A DNA stretch of 12,534 bases from Candidatus Micrarchaeia archaeon. Lineage in GTDB: Archaea > Micrarchaeota > Micrarchaeia > Anstonellales > J096. Every line of letters begins with the position of its first letter. The stretch's first letter is position 1. Location: contig JBGQMB010000026.1 of NCBI GenBank assembly GCA_041500405.1, positions 1-12,534 of the forward strand, in the 5' to 3' direction. A program made the translations under genes and the position numbers. Below the pieces are notes generated by a model. It had not been told where the DNA came from, searched no databases, and was given only the letters and a program-made list of their open reading frames with translations. Shown here one piece after another: positions 1 to 12,534 of the stretch.

Positions 1-348
1 CTCATATTTATTAGGTAATATTCTTTTGGAATAGACGAACATTTTACTGAATTTTTTGTTTCCAAAAATACTTTTTACCCTATTCTCTTTTTCTTCGCAA
101 AATTTATTTTTAACAGTTTCTAATGCTATTTTAACTACTTCACTGCTCTTAGGCAGACGCGGACTTGGGGATACAGTAACTTCAACCCATATCCTTTTTT
201 CATCTTTAGCATTTATACCTAGAATATCGATTTCTTTCCCTCGACCTCCCTTTTTTCCTTTTGGAACATTTATATTTTGTTTAGTAAAATAACCACAGAT
301 ATCTTGTAGCCAAACATTCACAATTTCTTCCCCTGGATTTACGGCCAT
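1..348 (-). CDS. PD-(D/E)xK restriction-endonuclease-like protein, 3'-truncated by the window edge (at least 116 aa; absent from the ORF track)
   Basis: Manual translation from ATG 348 is open to base 1: MAVNPGEEIVNVWLQDICGYFTKQNINVPKGKKGGRGKEIDILGINAKDEKRIWVEVTVSPSPRL... The helix Glu (GEEIV..WL..GY), EIDIL strand and WVEV strand match the Hjc/YraN/Mrr-type core, though the E-x-K Lys is replaced by Thr. SD-like AAGTGAT lies just upstream. Very AT-rich (about 30% GC by eye). Confidence 0.72.
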   Translation of the reverse strand, partial: MAVNPGEEIVNVWLQDICGYFTKQNINVPKGKKGGRGKEIDILGINAKDEKRIWVEVTVSPSPRLPKSSEVVKIALETVKNKFCEEKENRVKSIFGNKKFSKMFVYSKRILPNKYE

Positions 349-377: not shown

Positions 378-441
378 TTATTCGTACCTCAGCGCCTCAA
401 CCGGCGGAATATAGGATGCGTTCCGCGCAGGAATGACCCCG
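378..441 (-). repeat. 64-bp exact direct repeat, copy 1: displaced 3' fragment of the ABC permease gene (att-like site)
   Basis: Identical to 2161-2224 (TTATTCGTAC...GGAATGACCCCG). On the minus strand it encodes GVIPARNASYIPPVEALRYE* with no upstream gene body. GC-rich within AT-rich flanks. Confidence 0.97.
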
Positions 442-509
442 AAACGACCCAAAAAGTGGTATAAAACAAGCCAGAAAATATAAGACCTTGGCAACTACGT
501 CCGCTTTCA

Positions 510-545
510 TTTAAAAAGGGGCTCAACCAATAACAGTTAAGGTGA
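510..545 (+). promoter_or_regulatory. Putative TATA box (TTTAAAAA, 510-517) and Shine-Dalgarno (GGTGA, 541-545) of the cassette operon
   Basis: Archaeal TATA-like octamer about 30 bp upstream of the start codons. GGTGA also precedes rps13, rps4 and rps11 in this window. Confidence 0.55.
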
Positions 546-547
546 TG

Positions 548-1384
548 ATGGTGCTGCAGCGTGAGCGTGTATTGCTTTATCTTGCGGATTTGCTCCAGCA
601 CAGACACGATTTCTCAAAGACAAAGACAGATAAGATGCTTTTTCTGCTTTCAAATGAATATGGTTTCGGTGATAAAATCAAGTTCTACTCTTTTTATCCT
701 TACAATTATGGGCCCTTTTCCCAGTTATATTACTATGACCTGAGAAAGCTGAAAGTGCGGGGTTGCCTATCGGATAAAGAATGCGTAACGGAAAAAGGCC
801 GCTCGGAGGCGGAAATGCTTGCAGAGCCATTAAAAGAAACTATAAGGGCGGTTGCCGCAAGATTCAAAAGCATGGAAACGCTTAAGCGGTACGTCTATGA
901 CAATTATCCAGATTATACTGTAAAAAGCAAATTGTCCGGCAAGACAGCGAAATGCATGCCTCCCGGATTCTTTTCCATAGGCTATGAAGGCAAGACTATA
1001 GATTCATTCCTTGACATACTGATACGTAACGGAATTGAAGTTTTAATAGACGTTAGAGCAAACCCATTCAGCATGAATTTTGTTTTCACCGGCAAAAAGC
1101 TGGAAGAATACCTCAAAAAAGTTGGAATCGAATATATCCATATCCCTGAATTGGGTATAAACGGAAATTTGAGGAGAGGGCTTGAGACAAAGGGCGATTA
1201 CGCAAAGCTGTTTAATTATTATAAGAGTCACATACTGACAAAAGCCGGTCTTGGAAGAGTGATATTAGAAGGAAAGGGAAAGCGGGCCGCAATGATGTGT
1301 ATGGAGAGTAATCATGCGTCCTGCCATAGGGGAATAATCGCATCGGAATTAGAAAAAATGAATCATAAGGTGACGCACCTATGA
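548..1384 (+). CDS. DUF488-domain protein with N-terminal SocA/Panacea(DUF4065)-like helical domain
   Basis: N-terminus has KMLFLL...FYPYNYGPFS..YYDL. C-terminus has DUF488 motifs SIGYEG, LIDVRANPFS, GIEYIHIPELG and MCMESNHASCHR. Start is ATG 548 or GTG 551 (SD spacing favours 551; the ORF track opens at 542). Confidence 0.85.
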   Translation: MVLQRERVLLYLADLLQHRHDFSKTKTDKMLFLLSNEYGFGDKIKFYSFYPYNYGPFSQLYYYDLRKLKVRGCLSDKECVTEKGRSEAEMLAEPLKETIRAVAARFKSMETLKRYVYDNYPDYTVKSKLSGKTAKCMPPGFFSIGYEGKTIDSFLDILIRNGIEVLIDVRANPFSMNFVFTGKKLEEYLKKVGIEYIHIPELGINGNLRRGLETKGDYAKLFNYYKSHILTKAGLGRVILEGKGKRAAMMCMESNHASCHRGIIASELEKMNHKVTHL

Positions 1385-2160
1385 AAGAAAAGTTGCTCGT
1401 TTTGGCAAAGGCGGCTCCGGAGGCAAGCAAAAGGTATGAAGAGCTGGTGTGCATTGCCGGGGTAACAGATAAGGGCGAATGGAGAAGAATTTATCCAATC
1501 CCGTGGGAATTATTCTGGAAGGATAGCGGAAAAAAGTTCATGAAGAAGCAGTGGATAGAGTATGAATTGGTTGATGACAAGCCGTCTGACCACAGACCAG
1601 AGAGCAGGAAAGTCAAGTTCGAAACGATAAAGGTTTTGGAAAAAGCGTCATTTAGGGAGATTGAATCTATAACCAAACCTAGAATTACTACGATTGAATC
1701 TTTGATATCTCATGGAGCAAAAACCGTTTCGCTTGGCGCAATAAAGCCAGAATTGATAGATTTCACGCTGATGGACAACAAGCAATACGAAGAAATTCTT
1801 GGTATGTCGAAGCAACAGACGTTGACAGGTAAAACTGCGGTTTTGGAGCCTCCGGAACACAAGTATAGGTATATTTTTACTGATGTCAAAGGAGAACAGC
1901 CCCATAAAATGTTATGTGAGGATTGGGAACTAGAACGCCTTTATAGCGGTTGCAAAAAGAAGCTCCGCAATGGAGAATATTCTTCAATTGATGTCGTCCA
2001 TGAAAAAGTAAAAGACAAAATGTTCAGAAAAATAACAGAACACGGTCATTTCTATTTCGTTGTTGGAACTCATTATAGGTTCCCTACTTATATTATCGTT
2101 GGCGTGCTTTATCCAAGAAAAGACGAGCTTCCTGAATTGGACGCAGGCCCAAATAATTAA
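1381..2160 (+). CDS. Conserved DUF488-associated protein (possible dual OB-fold nucleic-acid-binding protein)
   Basis: 259-aa ORF with ATGA overlap with the DUF488 stop. Motifs KAAPEASKRYEELVCIAG..GEWRRIYPIP, DHRPES, CEDWE and FVVGT are of the type I recognise from genes next to DUF488 genes. The OB-fold call is tentative. Confidence 0.7.
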   Translation: MKEKLLVLAKAAPEASKRYEELVCIAGVTDKGEWRRIYPIPWELFWKDSGKKFMKKQWIEYELVDDKPSDHRPESRKVKFETIKVLEKASFREIESITKPRITTIESLISHGAKTVSLGAIKPELIDFTLMDNKQYEEILGMSKQQTLTGKTAVLEPPEHKYRYIFTDVKGEQPHKMLCEDWELERLYSGCKKKLRNGEYSSIDVVHEKVKDKMFRKITEHGHFYFVVGTHYRFPTYIIVGVLYPRKDELPELDAGPNN

Positions 2161-2224
2161 TTATTCGTACCTCAGCGCCTCAACCGGCGGAATATAGGAT
2201 GCGTTCCGCGCAGGAATGACCCCG
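2161..2224 (-). repeat. 64-bp exact direct repeat, copy 2: 3' end of the intact ABC permease gene (att-like site)
   Basis: Identical to 378-441. Identity stops exactly at the stop codon on one side and at 2225/442 on the other. Confidence 0.97.
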
Positions 2225-3411
2225 GAAATTATGCCCACAAAGGCTGAAAATCCCACGCCGAAGAGCGCAAGCCCAACCGTTATGTTGACAGCAAGCCCGA
2301 AGCTTGTCACTATGGACGATATCGCCACGCTCAGCAAAACGCCCAAAAGCCCGCCAACGGTCCCTATTATGCAGGCCTCAATCACGAACAACATCATAAC
2401 GTCGGAACCGGTCATGCCGAGCGACTTGTAGACTCCAATCTGCTTCGTTTGCTCCAAAACGCTCATGAACATCGTATTGGCAGTGCCAATCCCGCCGACA
2501 ATCAATGCAACTGACGCAATGCCGCCCAAAAACAGCGTAAGCGTGCTTGTCATGGCCTCAATCGTTGCCTGCATGGATGAAGCGGTCGTTACTGTAAAAT
2601 CGTCATCGCTGGAGTCGCTTATGCCGTGCAGGGACCTCAATTTTTCGCTTACGGCGTCCGCAACATCATCCGTTTCATAGCTGTCTTCAATCACTATGAC
2701 GATTTTGCTCACGGTCTTTGTCTGGTTCAAAAGTATCTTCGCTGCCTTTTGCGGAATGTAGATGGAACTGTCAGAACTGCCGAAAGACGAGGAGCCCGAA
2801 GCGTTCAGAATGCCCACAACCCTGAAGGACACGTTGTTTATCTTTATCTGCTTGTTCAGCATGTTTGCGCCCTGGAAGGTCCTGTTCTGGACGGAGTATC
2901 CTATTACGGCCGTGTAAAGGTCGCCTGTGCCAAGCAACTTGCCAGAAGTGAGATTTATCCCAATGTTCTTGGAAAACTCGCGCGGCTCAGTTCCCACAAT
3001 TGTTGCGCTCGACTCCCAAGTGCCGTATTCAACATTGCCGCTTCCGGATACCTGGGCGTCAAGCGAGTTCACCCCGGCTACCGTGCGCAAAGCATCAGCT
3101 TCAGTGAATGTTATCGTGCTGGTTTGCCTGGTCTGGAAGCCGGAATCCGGGGGTCCCCCGTCCCCCGAAAACCCGCCCCCTCCCATCATGCCGGTCCTTT
3201 CGGTTGACGTGCCTCCGGGCGATATCGAGATAATATTGGTTCCCAGCGTATTGAGGCTGCTGCTTATGCTGTCGCTCATGCCGAAGCTTATCGCGACAAG
3301 CGTGACGACCGCCGCCACGCCTATCACGATGCCCAATATGGCGAGCCAGCTGCGCAAACTTCTGTGACGCAGCGTGTCAAGCGCTATTGACGCCAGATCC
3401 TGTATGTTCAT
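2161..3411 (-). CDS. ABC transporter permease, MacB/FtsX/LolE family
   Basis: RSWLAILGIVIGVAAVV first TM helix, large extracytoplasmic domain, GGIGTANTMFMSVLEQTKQIGVYKSLG, C-terminal PARNASYIPPVEALRYE. Start at ATG 3411 (MNIQDL) gives an ATGA overlap with the upstream stop; 416 aa. Confidence 0.93.
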   Translation of the reverse strand: MNIQDLASIALDTLRHRSLRSWLAILGIVIGVAAVVTLVAISFGMSDSISSSLNTLGTNIISISPGGTSTERTGMMGGGGFSGDGGPPDSGFQTRQTSTITFTEADALRTVAGVNSLDAQVSGSGNVEYGTWESSATIVGTEPREFSKNIGINLTSGKLLGTGDLYTAVIGYSVQNRTFQGANMLNKQIKINNVSFRVVGILNASGSSSFGSSDSSIYIPQKAAKILLNQTKTVSKIVIVIEDSYETDDVADAVSEKLRSLHGISDSSDDDFTVTTASSMQATIEAMTSTLTLFLGGIASVALIVGGIGTANTMFMSVLEQTKQIGVYKSLGMTGSDVMMLFVIEACIIGTVGGLLGVLLSVAISSIVTSFGLAVNITVGLALFGVGFSAFVGIISGVIPARNASYIPPVEALRYE

Positions 3412-5021
3412 TTCCTCTGCTCCTCTTTCTTCGGCTCTTCCTTTTTGCGCCTGAATTTCTTCATCCACACGAAATATGCCAAGCCAAGGACGGCAACAAC
3501 CGCGGCAATCGGGATTACGTCAACCCCGAATACGCGTATGCCGCTGGCGTTCCGCTGGGAAAACCCGTTTCCAGGGCCCGTCATGGCCGTGCCGTTTCCA
3601 TTAGATGCCGGGGTGCCGGCTGAATCTCCTGTTGAGCTTCCGACCGTTATATACACCGTTTTCGTGACTGTCTTCTCCTGGTTCAGGCTGTCCTTGAACG
3701 TCACTGAGATCAAAAGCGGATACTCGCCGTTTTTTGCCGGCGCAGAAACCGTCGGCTGCAGCGTGTAAGAGTCATCCACGTTCAGCGTGCCTACAAATTC
3801 TGAGCTGGACGCAGTGACCTTGAGGTCGCTGCTGGACGTCACGCTGGCATACGCGCTCCTTATCGCGGAGTTGCCAGTGTTCGCTATGGTTATTGATACC
3901 TCCCCTTCCGAGCCAAGGGTGATGGAGTCTCCATTGGTTATGGTCAGCTCAGGCGTAGCCTGGATCAAAACGCCAACGCTTCCGTTCCAGGACTGGCCAT
4001 TGCCGGATATTATGCTCACGGGCAGGTTGTAGTATCCTGCAGCCACGCTCGAGCTTATGCCTATGGTCATATTGGCCGTTTTCGTCTCCCCAGGCGAAAC
4101 GGAGTCGAAGTAGATGCGCGACGGGCCCAAGGGCATGAACTCATCTCCGCTCCCTATCTGCACAATCGCGGAATCCGAGTCTGCGCCCCTGTTTTTTATG
4201 GAAACGGAAAACACGGTTCCAGACCCTATTTCCACAGATGTGTCAGGGACAACCGAAAGCTCCCATTTTGTGTTGGAGCTCATTATGTTCACTGGCCCCG
4301 CATACACAGTCCCGTTGATTTGGTTGTACTGCGCGTCCTCGTAAGTCACAACTATGGGGATCATCTGCCTTCCATACGAGGAAGGGGATGATACGATGAG
4401 CGAAAGCGAGGCGTTCCGCGCTCCTCCGCTCTCTATGTCCCCAAGGCGTATTGAAGATGACCCGTTGAGGTAAATTCCTGAGCCGGATTCTGGCGCCAGG
4501 GTAACGTCCCCCATGCTGTTTTCGCCAATGTTGCTGATGCGCAGGTTGACTGATACGGTGTCTCCTGGGTACAATTCAGAAGGCCCGGTGCCAGTCACTT
4601 CCGCAACCAGGGAGTTCCTTCCTGAAACGCTTATTGGTATGGACGCATATGTCATCTGGGTGCCGCCCGAGTCCTCAAACACTATCCTGAGGTAAAGCAC
4701 TATCACGCTGCCCTTATAGTCGCTGGGGACATTGAAAGGCAGGGATGTTATTGTGGACGAGCCAGAGCCTATGCCCCCCACGCTCATGTAGCTGTCCTCG
4801 CTGCCATACGAGTAATAGACTGCCACGGAATCCGCTGTCTCGGAGCCGGTGTTTTCAAGGTCCAGCCTGAGCTGGGCATAGGTCCCGCTGTAAACAGTGC
4901 TTGGTATCGTAGAATAGTCCGAAACCGCTATGGCCGCGCCGCTTGAAGACGACGTGGCAGCAGCCGAAATCCCTAACATCAAAACCGCCGCGAATGCGGC
5001 AAACCATATATTTTTCATCAT
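3408..5021 (-). CDS. COG1361-like S-layer-domain (Ig-like/CARDB repeat) membrane-anchored protein
   Basis: Signal peptide, repeated beta-rich modules (LENTG, ISNIG, IKNRG, IANTG), many N-X-S/T sequons, C-terminal TM helix and basic tail. Sits between ABC ATPase and permease, as is typical in archaea. Confidence 0.85.
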   Translation of the reverse strand: MMKNIWFAAFAAVLMLGISAAATSSSSGAAIAVSDYSTIPSTVYSGTYAQLRLDLENTGSETADSVAVYYSYGSEDSYMSVGGIGSGSSTITSLPFNVPSDYKGSVIVLYLRIVFEDSGGTQMTYASIPISVSGRNSLVAEVTGTGPSELYPGDTVSVNLRISNIGENSMGDVTLAPESGSGIYLNGSSSIRLGDIESGGARNASLSLIVSSPSSYGRQMIPIVVTYEDAQYNQINGTVYAGPVNIMSSNTKWELSVVPDTSVEIGSGTVFSVSIKNRGADSDSAIVQIGSGDEFMPLGPSRIYFDSVSPGETKTANMTIGISSSVAAGYYNLPVSIISGNGQSWNGSVGVLIQATPELTITNGDSITLGSEGEVSITIANTGNSAIRSAYASVTSSSDLKVTASSSEFVGTLNVDDSYTLQPTVSAPAKNGEYPLLISVTFKDSLNQEKTVTKTVYITVGSSTGDSAGTPASNGNGTAMTGPGNGFSQRNASGIRVFGVDVIPIAAVVAVLGLAYFVWMKKFRRKKEEPKKEEQRK

Positions 5022-5035
5022 GTTGATCCCTTCAT

Positions 5036-5752
5036 TTAACTGGCATTGTTTTCCTTTGCCGCGCGCTGCGGCTTCCTTACGTCTTTGTCTATCATGCCAT
5101 CCGTTATGTGTATTGTCCTGTTGGCATGGGACGCCACTATGTGGTCGTGCGTCACCAGTATGACCGTTATTCCCAAGTCGTCATGCAGCGAAGATATGAA
5201 ATTAAGCACAGCGGTGCCTGTAAGGGAGTCAAGGTTCCCGGTAGGCTCGTCCGCAAGCAGTATCCTCGGGTTTGTGACAAGCGCCCTTGCTATGGCCACG
5301 CGCTGTTTTTGCCCCCCGCTCAATTCAGACGGCATCCTGTTCTTCTTGTCCAGTATGCCGACCATGGCAAGCGTCTTTTCGACCCTCTTCGCGCGCTCTT
5401 CGTTTGGGATCTCTTTGATCATAAGCGGCAGTTCCACGTTCCGCGACACGCTCATATTGGGCGATAGGTTGAAGAACTGGAAGACGAATCCTATATTGTC
5501 TCTCCTTATTATTGCCAGCTCGTCCTCTTTTAGCCTTGAAACGTCGCGGCCGTCAAACGACACCTTGCCTGCGCTTGGCTTGTCAAGCAGGCCCAAAATG
5601 TGCAGAAATGTGCTTTTGCCGCTTCCGCTTTGGCCTATTATGGAGACAAACTCGCCCCTGTCGACCCTGAAGCTGACATTCTTCAGCGCAAGGAATGGGC
5701 TGCCTCCGTTGTATGACTTGGAAACGCCTGAAAGCTCTATCAGTGAATTCAT
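5036..5752 (-). CDS. ABC transporter ATP-binding protein, LolD/MacB/SalX family
   Basis: Walker A GQSGSGKST, Q-loop GFVFQ, signature LSGGQKQRV, Walker B ILLADEPTGNLD, H-loop VTHD. SD-like GTGAT upstream. Confidence 0.96.
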   Translation of the reverse strand: MNSLIELSGVSKSYNGGSPFLALKNVSFRVDRGEFVSIIGQSGSGKSTFLHILGLLDKPSAGKVSFDGRDVSRLKEDELAIIRRDNIGFVFQFFNLSPNMSVSRNVELPLMIKEIPNEERAKRVEKTLAMVGILDKKNRMPSELSGGQKQRVAIARALVTNPRILLADEPTGNLDSLTGTAVLNFISSLHDDLGITVILVTHDHIVASHANRTIHITDGMIDKDVRKPQRAAKENNAS

Positions 5753-6675: not shown

Positions 6676-6711
6676 TCAGCCCAACCTTATACGCCATCAG
6701 GTCTGGTGCAA

Positions 6712-8613
6712 ATGGAAAATTCTATGAAAATTGTTGTTATAGCCGTGTTAGTGCTGGCAGCCATTGCCGGAATCCTCTATTTTGGCGGGTATTTTGGCGC
6801 GCCTGAAACAGCAACAAACATAACCAATGGAACAGCATGCAACGCCCCGTACATAGTTTCCGGCGCAGGCTGCTGCCTTGACCAAAACTCCAATAGCATC
6901 TGCGACGCAAACGAAACAATCCAAAACCAGACCGGCACCAATGAAACGGCAAACATAACCGCAAACCAGACCGCTTCGAACGCAACGGTCTTCCAAAACC
7001 AGACCGGCGCCAACGGAACAATAATTGCAAATGCAACAGCCTCAGGCAACAGAAGCCGCATAACCCACCAGCCCCTGATAAAATGCACGAAACCGTACAT
7101 CAAGTCAGGCAAGGTATGCTGCCTTGACCTGAGCAATGACTCGGTCTGCGACGAAAACGAAAAGTGCGAAAGCCCGGCTATCCTTTACAACGGCGTCTGC
7201 TGCCTGGACACGAACAATGACCAAGTCTGCGACACGCCCTGCGATACGCCGAATATCATTTCCAACGGCATTTGCTGCCCAGACTTGAACAACGACTCGG
7301 CCTGCGACGCAAACGCAACGTGCGAAGCCCCGTTCATCATTTCCAACGGAACCTGCTGCCTTGACCAAAACAATGACTCCGTCTGCGACACGCCCTGCGA
7401 TACGCCGAACATTTATTTCAACGGAACCTGTTGTCTGGACTTGAACAACGACAGTGTTTGCGACATAAACGCAACATGTGAAAGACCAAACATACTTTTC
7501 AACGGGACCTGTTGTCTGGACTTGAACAACGACAGTGTTTGCGACATAAACGCAACATGTGAAAGACCAAACATACTTTTCAACGGGACCTGTTGTCTGG
7601 ACGTGAACAACGACTCAAGGTGCGACACGAATCTAACGTGCGAAAAGCCGAACATACTTTTCAACGGCACCTGCTGCAAAGATTTGAACAACGACTCACG
7701 ATGCGACATGAATGTCACGTCCAACGCCACGTTCGTTGACGTCCACGCGCATATAACGCCGGACAACATGCCGCTGGACGATGTGCTAAAGCTCATGAAG
7801 ATGGAAGGCATTGACAAGATGGTGATAATGGAGCCGCCTGCGACAGGGTCGGATGATGCATCGGAAGAATACGGCATACCCGAGGCAAGCGAGGAATACC
7901 CCGACAATTTCATATCGCTCTACGGGGGGGAGGCAAAGGCAATGCTCGAATCCGAGGCGGACTCGAAGGACATTTCGGAGGAGGATTCACATGCATTCGG
8001 AAAGCTTCTTGAGGACGCGATGGAAACAAAGAAATACAGGGGCTTCGGGGAGATTGGGCTCAGGCACTTCGGCCACGGAGATAACGAAGAGGGATACGAC
8101 CTGACAATACCCTGCGACCATCCCCTGATGCTCATAATGAGCGACATTGCGGCAAAGTACAAGGTTCCGATAGACGTGCACATGGAGGCAACGGACGAAA
8201 CGATAGCAGGCCTTGCCAAGCTTCTTGATTACAACGAAAACACGACAATCATCTGGGACCACGCAGGATGGTCGAACACAGGGAAGGCCACGCCGGAAGT
8301 GCTTGGAAAGCTGATGAAGGATCATCCGAACCTTTATTCCAGCATAAAGCTAAGGAAGCCGGAGACCGAGGAGATGGCTGCGGTAAGCATACTGGACCAA
8401 AACGGGACAATAAAGAAGGATTGGCTGAAGCTGTTCACGGACTATCCGGACAGGTTCATGATAGGCACGGACATCAAGTTCGGATTCGGCGATGATTCAA
8501 ACAACACGCAATTAATCGAGATGCACAGGGACTTCCTGGGCCAGCTGCCGCAGGAGATAGCCAAGAAGATAGGCACGGAAAACGGAGGAGCGGTCTTCGG
8601 GAAGAAGAAATAG
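6712..8613 (+). CDS. Membrane-anchored surface protein: nine Cys-rich repeats plus a C-terminal metal-dependent amidohydrolase (TIM barrel) domain
   Basis: N-terminal TM/signal anchor. Repeats CxxPxIxxxxxCCxDxxxxxxCD. Amidohydrolase motifs FVDVHAHI, GFGEI, DVHME, WDHAG and IGTD. Start ATG 6712 or 6724. Confidence 0.88.
   Translation: MENSMKIVVIAVLVLAAIAGILYFGGYFGAPETATNITNGTACNAPYIVSGAGCCLDQNSNSICDANETIQNQTGTNETANITANQTASNATVFQNQTGANGTIIANATASGNRSRITHQPLIKCTKPYIKSGKVCCLDLSNDSVCDENEKCESPAILYNGVCCLDTNNDQVCDTPCDTPNIISNGICCPDLNNDSACDANATCEAPFIISNGTCCLDQNNDSVCDTPCDTPNIYFNGTCCLDLNNDSVCDINATCERPNILFNGTCCLDLNNDSVCDINATCERPNILFNGTCCLDVNNDSRCDTNLTCEKPNILFNGTCCKDLNNDSRCDMNVTSNATFVDVHAHITPDNMPLDDVLKLMKMEGIDKMVIMEPPATGSDDASEEYGIPEASEEYPDNFISLYGGEAKAMLESEADSKDISEEDSHAFGKLLEDAMETKKYRGFGEIGLRHFGHGDNEEGYDLTIPCDHPLMLIMSDIAAKYKVPIDVHMEATDETIAGLAKLLDYNENTTIIWDHAGWSNTGKATPEVLGKLMKDHPNLYSSIKLRKPETEEMAAVSILDQNGTIKKDWLKLFTDYPDRFMIGTDIKFGFGDDSNNTQLIEMHRDFLGQLPQEIAKKIGTENGGAVFGKKK
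7084..7719 (+). repeat. Intragenic tandem array of eight 75-81-bp Cys-rich coding repeats (a ninth, isolated copy starts at 6838)
   Basis: Perfect 81-bp period over 7426-7602. A 29-bp identity between 7225-7253 and 7381-7409 marks a 156-bp dimer period. Confidence 0.93.
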
Positions 8614-11345: not shown

Positions 11346-12509
11346 TCACGGCCAATATAAAACAGTATACTTTTTCCCATCTGCCTCAGACGCCTTTTTC
11401 ATTCCCAGCCGAAAATAGGCATCGGCGCGGTTGCCATAATAAACCCAATTCTTCGGCTCCAATTTTATAGCCTTAGTAAAATCCTTGACTGCCAGCCACA
11501 GTTTGCCACGGTCATTAGGTACATTTCCAAGGTTATGGTAAGAAATCCCCCGCAGGTTATACAACTCCGCGACAAGCGAGTCTGCTTCTATTGCCTTGCT
11601 ATAGTCCTTGAGCGCCAGCCGGGTTTCACCTAGATCCTCATAAGCGTCCCCGCGCAGACGGCAACAAGTCGCGCATTTAGGGTTCAGTTCTACGGCCTTA
11701 TTGAAGTCCCTGATTGCCCGCCACAATCTGCCCCGATTATAATATGAAAGCCCCCGGCAATTATAGGCAATAGATTGGATCTTTTCAGGGTCGGAAGTTA
11801 TGGTTTCTATGACTTGGTAATGCTCGTGAACCTTTTCCAGGGGGTAATGCCCCCCCAGAATTGTCTCAAAAAAGAAATTCTGCGTCTTGACAAGCTGGTG
11901 CTTCCAAACAAAAACTATCTCCATGTTTATATGAAGCTCTCTTGCCACATCAAATACGAGAAAACTGGAAGTGGTGCAGTTAAACTTCCCGGTACAGAGC
12001 GATTCGGACATGTATCCATTCTTATTGCGGCCCTTATGGTTTGTGAAGTGCATTATGTTTTCTATGCCGGTTATGAACTTTTCCTCATCCATTTGGGATT
12101 TTCTCCCCAGCAGGTCCAGAAGGCCGTCCAATGCATCGGCAAGAGGGCGAGAAAGACGGTTCCATGGAAAGCCCCTGTATTCGTGTTTCAGGACATCCGA
12201 GACGTCAGAAACAAGCTCGTTGTATTTCCGCCCATAAGCGTCTGCCTGTCGGGGGGCATTCTCCAGTTCGATTTTGATTCTTCTGCTTCCGGCAGTTTCC
12301 CTGGCAATGGCGGAGTATTTGGTGGGCACTTTCGTAAGCAAGGAGTCTATCCAAGGCGCTGTCTTTACCGTGACGCTGTCGGCCGTTGCCTTTTCAATCA
12401 TCGTTTTCTCTGCCAGCGGCTGCGCAGTTATCCTTGGTTTTTTGTCGCAAGCCGGGCTGATTGCCAGCATTGCCGCAAGCGCCGCTCCGGCAACAAGCAT
12501 CCTTCCCAT
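11346..12509 (-). CDS. Secreted/lipoprotein-like protein with transglutaminase-like (Cys-His-acid) domain and about four C-terminal TPR repeats
   Basis: Hydrophobic signal ending ISPAC. Core GKFNCTTSSFL...ELHI...WKHQLV...FFET. TPRs such as AYNCRGLSYYNRG...AIRDFNKAVELNP. In-frame stop two codons upstream of ATG 12509. Confidence 0.82.
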   Translation of the reverse strand: MGRMLVAGAALAAMLAISPACDKKPRITAQPLAEKTMIEKATADSVTVKTAPWIDSLLTKVPTKYSAIARETAGSRRIKIELENAPRQADAYGRKYNELVSDVSDVLKHEYRGFPWNRLSRPLADALDGLLDLLGRKSQMDEEKFITGIENIMHFTNHKGRNKNGYMSESLCTGKFNCTTSSFLVFDVARELHINMEIVFVWKHQLVKTQNFFFETILGGHYPLEKVHEHYQVIETITSDPEKIQSIAYNCRGLSYYNRGRLWRAIRDFNKAVELNPKCATCCRLRGDAYEDLGETRLALKDYSKAIEADSLVAELYNLRGISYHNLGNVPNDRGKLWLAVKDFTKAIKLEPKNWVYYGNRADAYFRLGMKKASEADGKKYTVLYWP

Positions 12510-12534
12510 GTTTCAGATTATGTACAAATGAGTA

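Follow-up and report, generated by a model that had tools for sequence, protein, structure and literature searches.

How can a two-gene insert that encodes no recombinase come to lie between two exact copies of the end of a host gene? The question is raised by a 12,534-nucleotide stretch of DNA (hereafter, the window), which is the whole of contig C26 (JBGQMB010000026.1) in the assembly of a Candidatus Micrarchaeia archaeon (GCA_041500405.1; source genome G000, 916 kb in 60 contigs, 86% complete). In this window, the candidate defence pair PDC-M19A/B sits behind the gene of a MacB/FtsX-type ABC permease, whose last codons are found on both sides of the pair. The reading that we favour, with a probability of about 0.5, is capture without any integrase, by short-homology recombination between gene tails. 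The evidence for it is that the site exists in filled and empty states, that comparable inserts recur behind unrelated genes in G000 and in the sister species G001 (G002 belongs to the same genus, G005 to the same family), and that no recombinase was found in the family.

A cassette between two copies of a permease tail

Positions 378-441 and 2161-2224 are identical at 64/64 bp and lie 1783 bp apart, the identity stopping at the stop-codon side. Direct comparison confirms that, as originally predicted, the repeat comprises the final 20 codons and the stop (TAA) of the permease, preceded by 1 base. For comparison, exact repeats reached no more than 17 bp in any of 100 random 12.5-kb sequences of matched dinucleotide composition, and a search of the 916-kb assembly for further copies of the 64-bp repeat returned these two only. 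The locus consists of the following features:

378..441, minus strand: distal copy of the permease tail (64/64 match to 2161-2224), attR-like; by analogy with the polarity of other tail pairs, the putative displaced resident tail
442..541, plus strand: cassette leader, 100 bp, non-coding, with TATA-like boxes at 460-466 and 510-517 (read from the sequence)
542..1384, plus strand: PDC-M19A (PADLOC, E 3e-69; Pfam DUF488, E 1e-23)
1381..2160, plus strand: PDC-M19B (PADLOC, E 2e-40)
2161..2224, minus strand: proximal tail copy, attL-like, the present working 3' end of the permease gene (repeat comparison)
2161..3468, minus strand: the target, a MacB/FtsX-type ABC permease with its likely start ATG at 3411 (Pfam MacB_PCD, FtsX)
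1..348, minus strand: low-GC incomplete open reading frame, PD-(D/E)XK-nuclease-like (a lead only), outside the repeat-bounded unit

The 1.72-kb insert holds the 100-bp non-coding leader, the two genes and nothing else, and its GC content of 0.41 is below that of the permease (0.53) and of the genome (0.51), in agreement with the original description of a promoter region plus two lower-GC genes. The TATA-like boxes were called against the archaeal TATA consensus; a sigma-70 scan of the leader gave nothing above chance. The cassette genes face the permease, the last gene of an operon that also encodes an ATPase and a CARDB protein (2161-5752), and the M19B stop directly abuts the permease stop. 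The permease tail of G001 is 57/64 identical to the window repeat; given this divergence and the identity of the two window copies, either the donor belonged to the same species or the copies have become homogenised. Because the two copies are identical, the polarity at the permease can be read only by analogy with other sites. Taken together with the recombinase searches below, these features support a recent integrase-less insertion that left the permease whole.

Five sequencing runs contain the stretch, and the contigs of four of them (X1, X2, X4 and X5) were compared; the runs come from four studies, possibly of one campaign, and the evidence consists of k-mer contigs, in which the junctions of a circle and of an integrated cassette are indistinguishable. 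The originally predicted 1783-bp circle was not observed in contigs of this kind. One 376-bp contig of X2 joins position 377 to 2161, with zero depth over 451-2100, which is the empty site that had been predicted; a precise empty site with a single tail copy may represent either loss or a never-filled state. The cassette in X1, which may be the source run, has a depth of 9.1, close to that of the permease (9.3-10.1), a contig of X5 (233-776) crosses the left repeat copy, and both cassette junctions are present in X4. Both filled (X1, X4, X5) and empty (X2) states of the site exist in nature. The permease orthologues of G001 and G002 (84% and 75%, respectively) have a single tail and other downstream genes, and the permease end is thus a variable site. 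A metagenome scan with the C-terminal 200 amino acids of the permease yielded 10 distant loci (30-43%), which were not used.

Could the filled state be a fusion of two strain variants, or of an empty site and a free circle, into one linear contig? None of the examined contigs spans both copies, the left flank in X1 has half the depth of the cassette (4.3 vs. 9.1), and X4 lacks the left flank. However, all four junctions are present across the runs, the cassette depth in X1 equals that of the chromosome, X2 is cleanly empty, and the footprint recurs in independent genomes; furthermore, contig ends of G000 overlap by 141 bp, which suggests that the assembly k exceeded the repeat length of 64. 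We consider such a fusion scarcely credible, and the two-strain artefact that the original prediction named as its own potential refutation is disfavoured.

Several contig ends in these runs deserve mention in their own right. Further loose ends occur in X2 (at 370 and 405) and in X5 (at 412), the 64-bp unitig of X1 has a depth of 27.5, its neighbours having 9-10 and the left flank 4.3, and in X4 the repeat is fused to the end of M19B, without the left flank. The repeat depth in X1 and the fusion in X4 could reflect additional tail copies, tandem cassettes, a circle, or loss of AT-rich tips. The X2 loose end at 2163 was considered as a second cassette and rejected, its sequence corresponding to what follows the permease gene in G001. 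To the left of the cassette, the DNA looks foreign as well (GC 0.31; GC at third codon positions, 0.22). The open reading frame at 1-348 has no match in Pfam, PADLOC or NCBIfam and one weak match among 400 other genomes of the class, its nearest named clusters being Mrr_cat and PD-(D/E)XK at 0.80-0.86; it adjoins the permease in the empty haplotype and may be an older insert that ends beyond the contig.

Tail-bounded inserts at other gene ends

Copies of the last 40 bases of each gene were sought downstream of its stop codon, at first up to 12 kb away, and a strict rule (copy length ≥ 20 bp, identity ≥ 90%, distance 0.3-4 kb, no paralogues) was fixed after this looser first look. Under the strict rule, a copy follows 6 of the 913 gene ends of G000 and 5 of the 824 gene ends of G001 (for which 806 kb out of ~1 Mb were covered), compared to 6 of 8307 inner anchors (Fisher p = 1.8e-5). 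The inserts recovered in this way are 0.7-1.9 kb long, and the 18 periods that were examined range from 666 to 2214 bp. Two cases that pass the rule are weak, namely C20 (21 bp with 2 mismatches) and L175, which brackets a paralogue of the resident downstream gene; L126 (paralogue ends), C16, C17, L176, L177 and a 10.9-kb match at L138 were dropped as chance or paralogy.

The target genes are unrelated (T2SS-F, PEBP, thermosome, ABCE1-like ATPase, DUF655, DUF63, PAC2), and the cargo includes HEPN-MNT, a PIN toxin-like gene, Fic, ankyrin genes, a PyrD/PyrK fusion and NIF3. Identity between tail copies mostly ends at the stop codon or a few bases from it, and no 6-mer is common to more than 4 of the 14 junction sets. 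This recurrence of the same footprint at many unrelated gene ends disfavours the originally suggested role of the permease as a special att site. At C3 and C24, the flanks are joined without cargo in the sister genome; at L138 and L185, the cargo is missing from G000, but the adjoining sequence differs, too. The remaining sites lack synteny or fall outside the portion of the sister genome that the comparison covered.

Ankyrin-repeat genes, a large paralogue family of the genus, are cassette cargo at C24 (G000) and at L171 and L138 (G001), and tail-bounded cassettes may be a route by which this family spreads. Within another tail-bounded cassette (L091), the open reading frame at C54:611-1264 combines the start of a periplasmic binding protein with the end of an ABC ATPase and is an internally deleted transporter operon. 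In G001, a fused PyrD-PyrK dihydroorotate dehydrogenase gene (L145:14855-16621) lies behind the thermosome tail, and its stop appears inside the distal tail copy, in another frame. A 78-bp repeat on C2 was excluded from the count because it represents two tRNA-Arg genes with different anticodons (CCG and GCG; G000:C2:26282-26359 and 28201-28278), which differ at 1/78 bases, lie 1919 bp apart and bracket ankyrin genes. Dispersed repeats of 40-110 bp, often beside tRNA genes, occur on C2, C6, C7, C11, C12, C14, C15, C28 and C40 of G000.

Where the two tails of a pair differ, the differences are mostly silent. Over 171 codons in 15 tail pairs, which were picked by eye and are partly non-independent (C20, L066 and an indel-bearing third copy at L061 were omitted), there are 15 synonymous and 4 stop-to-stop differences vs. 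4 non-synonymous ones (19/23 silent; p = 3e-9 for an expected silent share of 0.23 and p = 4e-5 for a generous share of 0.40). Thus, each insert appears to have brought a working allele of the gene end and to have displaced the resident tail. The distal copy has the gene length of the sister species at C14 and L138, and at PAC2, the resident tails of all three species have TAC where the proximal tail has TAT; judging from these sequences, the distal copy is the resident tail at all three sites. Allele replacement and its polarity are directly observed at these sites.

This pattern bears on the possibility that both copies arose on the same chromosome, by target-site or tandem duplication during insertion (through a transposase, a casposase or repair). 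The window by itself would suit such an origin, its copies being perfectly identical to each other and less so to the G001 tail. Other sites, however, hold distinct selected alleles, as the predominance of silent changes indicates, and identity mostly stops at or near the stop codon. The ends of the window cassette have no terminal inverted repeat (17/60 complementary). The search for a casposase or transposase covered Cas1 in 3 genus genomes and IS110 in the family and found neither, other transposase families lying outside it. Local duplication is, in our estimate, very improbable.

One unit is shared across species. The cassette behind PAC2 differs between G000 and G001 at 12 of 1470 columns (99% identical), compared to 132/726 in the PAC2 host gene itself and to a median identity of the two genomes of 78.8% (397 fragments); only three fragments reach at least 90%, two of them rRNA-like and the third being the PAC2 cassette. 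The identity starts 33 bp before the stop codon and ends 12 bp into the distal copy; from there on, tail and flank are those of the respective species. The proximal tail is common to G000 and G001, the distal tails are species-specific, and in G002 the site is empty. These limits imply that the unit that moved was the repeat-bounded one, with a crossover window of 11-12 bp. Integration of a circle is the closest fit to this pattern; a linear tract, joined by a homologous anchor on one side and by microhomology on the other, is possible. The PAC2 cassette of G001 has a reverse-transcriptase-like gene as its neighbour (L128:18400-19500), which in G000 is on another contig (C18:12000-13340).

Recombinase searches and candidate mechanisms

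No tyrosine recombinase (PF00589), not even a XerA-like one, was found in the 19 genomes of the family, which are 77-94% complete and from which free viruses and plasmids are left unbinned, compared to 94 of the 157 other genomes in the order. Large serine recombinases (PF07508) and IS110 (PF01548) were likewise found in 0/19 family genomes each, PF00239 gave no match in G000, and tblastn of two Micrarchaeota-type integrases against G000 found nothing. The nearby tyrosine or serine recombinases that the original prediction led one to look for were, thus, not found. No integrase was detected in the window cassette (Pfam, PADLOC, NCBIfam) and no integrase remnant in any cassette examined. M19B as the mobilising protein was considered and rejected, other cassettes having no M19B. 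RadA is present in 5/5 genomes examined.

Under capture by short-homology recombination, the unit composed of the permease tail, the 100-bp promoter and PDC-M19A/B would be a small polymorphic cassette that pops in and out. Insertion would require neither an integrase of its own nor a dedicated one: a gene tail on incoming DNA would recombine with the resident tail and become the working gene end, the resident tail being displaced to the opposite end of the insert. With a tail on either side, the unit could then be excised in circular form or copied into a short linear tract and, once freed, would insert at the corresponding gene end of another cell or of a related species. The catalyst may be host RadA or RadA-independent annealing. 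Gene ends would be favoured because a tail-carrying insert breaks no gene there.

Several observations weigh against this scheme. No donor was found with the cargo behind a gene but without the second tail, the genomes being incomplete and lacking free elements as stated above, and neither DprA nor a Rad52-type annealing protein was found in 3 genus genomes. The trait is not uniform, given that 200-kb samples of G005 (same family, no integrase) and of G129 yielded 0/195 and 0/188, respectively. The PAC2 window of 11-12 bp is less than a RecA-family enzyme would be expected to use, and its precision equals that of site-specific recombination; this precision is the strongest point in favour of a site-specific enzyme. 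Evidence in both directions comes from 35 other M19 loci (20 from a first set, 14 of the 25 in a second set, from which 11 repeats of the same stretches were omitted, and 1 from a viral collection; several are short contigs). In favour of the scheme, M19 is bounded in three of them by tail copies of another gene: an IMPDH/GMPR tail at L065 and a MarR-like gene tail at L061, each in three copies with two stacked cassettes, and an HsdS tail at L214 (284 bp at 90%, including a 3' remnant of M19B). Against it, the starting points of the two different stacked cassettes at L061 almost coincide (about −46 and −44), and the similarity of two copies at L065 continues for ~44 bp past the stop, as expected of related att-carrying elements. 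In three other loci (L064, L076 and L195), M19 lies directly beside a tyrosine integrase. M19 being found at tails as well as beside integrases, this cargo appears to travel by more than one route. G145, a genome with a stacked array, has no PF00589 match, and G116 has one, on another contig; at L076, a reverse-transcriptase-like gene lies next to M19.

These last features would be accommodated if the cassettes resembled cis-mobilizable elements (CIMEs), that is, attL/attR-bounded remnants or satellites of an element that targets gene tails, which lost their integrase or never had one and are moved by the integrase of a helper virus or plasmid absent from the assemblies. The geometry is the classic one, tails borne by att sites also show silent-site differences, and the short, precise PAC2 crossover would be unsurprising. 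In streptococci, CIMEs (1.2-13 kb) form stacks at the 3' ends of protein-coding genes (PMC7563491), and archaeal elements use the 3' ends of protein genes (PMC6563490). However, a dozen unrelated targets in the two genomes would then each need an integrase of their own, and none was found in the family. The 22 integrase loci of related families gave two weak, unconvincing tail matches and no convincing protein-gene tail copy, and none of 300 gene ends at 20 of these loci passed the strict rule; at 8/22, a tRNA lies in the stretch. Integrase remnants are lacking in the cassettes, and the periods remain at 0.67-2.2 kb although up to 12 kb was allowed. In a viral collection, a 24-base tail stretch had 0 matches, and neither the M19B single query nor a Micrarchaeota-type integrase gave a confirmed one, which is a weak test as such viruses are probably rare there; an M19B alignment matched one locus (L215), where neither a tail copy nor a tRNA nor a match to an integrase was found. 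We regard this explanation as the main rival, though the less likely of the two. Thus, the original proposal of one minimal element, either mobilised in trans or stripped of its integrase, is not favoured in view of the footprint at many unrelated ends and the failure to find a recombinase in the family, whereas mobilisation by a helper remains a live rival.

Precision and diversity of targets would both be explained by an enzyme acting in trans on any short repeat, either a homology-driven enzyme of a mobile element, such as Int of the pTN3 type, or one of an unrecognised family. Int-pTN3 combines low specificity with a use of identical segments down to 104 bp (PMC5495485). The homologies here, at 11-76 bp, fall below this published limit, and the profile searches of the family (PF00589, PF07508, PF01548) and the tblastn search of G000 yielded no candidate. 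A relaxed recombinase of this kind seems to us improbable.

Cargo, precedents and significance

The M19A and M19B genes are adjacent, overlap by 4 bp and both match the PADLOC PDC-M19 models. As modelled (pLDDT 82), M19A combines an N-terminal winged-helix domain resembling a DarTG chain with a C-terminal DUF488 domain resembling the PTP/DSP-type phosphatase fold: the model aligns with 7yk3_D, a chain of a DarTG complex, at Z 10.1 (root-mean-square deviation (rmsd) 4.1, 125 aligned residues) and with laforin (4r30) at Z 9.3 (rmsd 2.8, 114 aligned). A weak DarG match was also found (E 0.036), and a Foldseek search with the model gave nothing at E ≤ 0.001. Residues C253, C261, H262 and R263 of M19A are invariant. 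M19B is probably a nucleic-acid-binding protein with two OB folds in tandem, as suggested by its model (pLDDT 83; RPA/SSB-type OB fold at Z 8.0, rmsd 2.6, 78 aligned) and by matches to tandem-OB HIN, telomere-binding and RPA proteins from E 6e-5; a DuOB cluster at 0.88 is a lead only. The pair may comprise a nucleic-acid sensor and an enzymatic partner, and would be a candidate antiviral system. The PDC set consists of 145 predicted systems, and M19 is unnamed in the main text as available (bioRxiv 10.1101/2024.01.29.577857); DPANN genomes have been reported to be rich in compact candidates of this type (PMC12988326). The distribution of M19B is patchy, with matches in 20 of 400 other genomes of the class and 0/17 in the family of G000. 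Named close homologues of the cargo are in line with the assignment of G000 to the Micrarchaeota. The open-access literature yielded no occurrence of PDC-M19 and nothing useful on DUF488 with OB folds. A second M19 variant, ~89% identical and probably from another organism, is present in X4 (at window positions 574-700 and 1338-1641).

Elsewhere in the window, 6706-8613 encodes a long cysteine-rich repeat stalk (78-81-bp units) with an Amidohydrolase/TatD-like domain behind it, and 11346-12534 contains tandem TPR-gene paralogues with a common 83-bp leader, which continue on G000:C12:1-1336 (66-bp overlap).

Among known systems, the closest in form are the CIMEs, which accrete in tandem at fda, rpsI, rpmG and rplL in streptococci (PMC7563491). 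They share with the present cassettes the 1-13-kb cargo units, direct repeats at protein-gene 3' ends, the lack of recombination genes and the tandem stacks; unlike these cassettes, CIMEs stem from integrative and conjugative or integrative and mobilizable elements of the same species and use few shared att sites, whereas the present targets are numerous and unrelated to one another, and the family yielded no element with an integrase. The E. coli H47 island can be excised and integrated via its flanking repeats, independently of RecA (PMC5426353). It is a single 13-kb island with long imperfect repeats, in contrast to the 11-76-bp working gene tails and 0.7-2.2-kb units found here genome-wide and across species. 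The lack of a recombinase of its own is a feature that the present cassette has in common with that island and with 'unconventional circularizable structures'.

Homology-facilitated illegitimate recombination and single-crossover integration of circularised DNA (PMC3240628), as well as transformation-induced unequal crossing-over by incoming DNA (PMC3784515), are likewise host-catalysed, rely on one homologous anchor and can give duplications; unlike the present case, they concern laboratory bacteria, and natural tail duplication bounded by a stop codon would be an extension that we propose here. The cryptic integrated elements of thaumarchaea and other archaeal integrated mobile genetic elements, which occupy 3' parts of protein genes (PMC6563490), also restore the stop codon, with sizes from 2.6 kb, but are defined by an encoded integrase or casposase and have att sites mostly shorter than 26 bp. 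Integron gene cassettes have an attC hairpin at the cassette end and depend on an integron integrase; here, the junction folds are weak (−13.7 and −9.3 kcal/mol, with no shuffle control), the repeat is coding sequence, and G000 has no PF00589 protein. Low-specificity recombination by an archaeal integrase has been described as well (PMC8371274), with DPANN and Micrarchaeota unmentioned in the available text. Each step of the proposed mechanism has a precedent in other organisms (PMC5426353, PMC3240628, PMC3784515, PMC5495485, PMC8371274). The open-access literature yielded no description of such cassettes in Micrarchaeota and nothing useful on short-homology recombination in Sulfolobus. Functionally, the cassette resembles a CIME or a recombinase-less island; any descent from an element with an integrase is hypothetical.

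Taken alone, the locus is an ordinary-looking integrase-less islet. It is lifted by its context, namely a dozen inserts behind unrelated genes in two genomes whose family yielded no tyrosine recombinase, together with the empty-site haplotype, the polarity of alleles and one cross-species case. As a rule, islets that lack an integrase and have a duplicated gene tail are dismissed as decayed elements; host-catalysed short-homology capture becomes a testable alternative. If this alternative is correct, island finders anchored on integrases would miss such cassettes. Tentatively, and as a possibility only, these cassettes could represent a general, recombinase-free mode of gene gain in the lineage, whereby units of 0.7-2.2 kb, with 1-2 cargo genes and the working last 6-25 codons of a gene, would enter any gene end via 11-12 bp of identity, stack, toggle and cross between species ~20% apart; such a mobile unit would have a borrowed gene tail as its sole defining feature, and the cassettes could then be a main supply of defence and toxin-antitoxin genes in integrase-lacking DPANN archaea. 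If true, the capture proposed here would be a route by which reduced DPANN genomes gain and shed compact defence genes.

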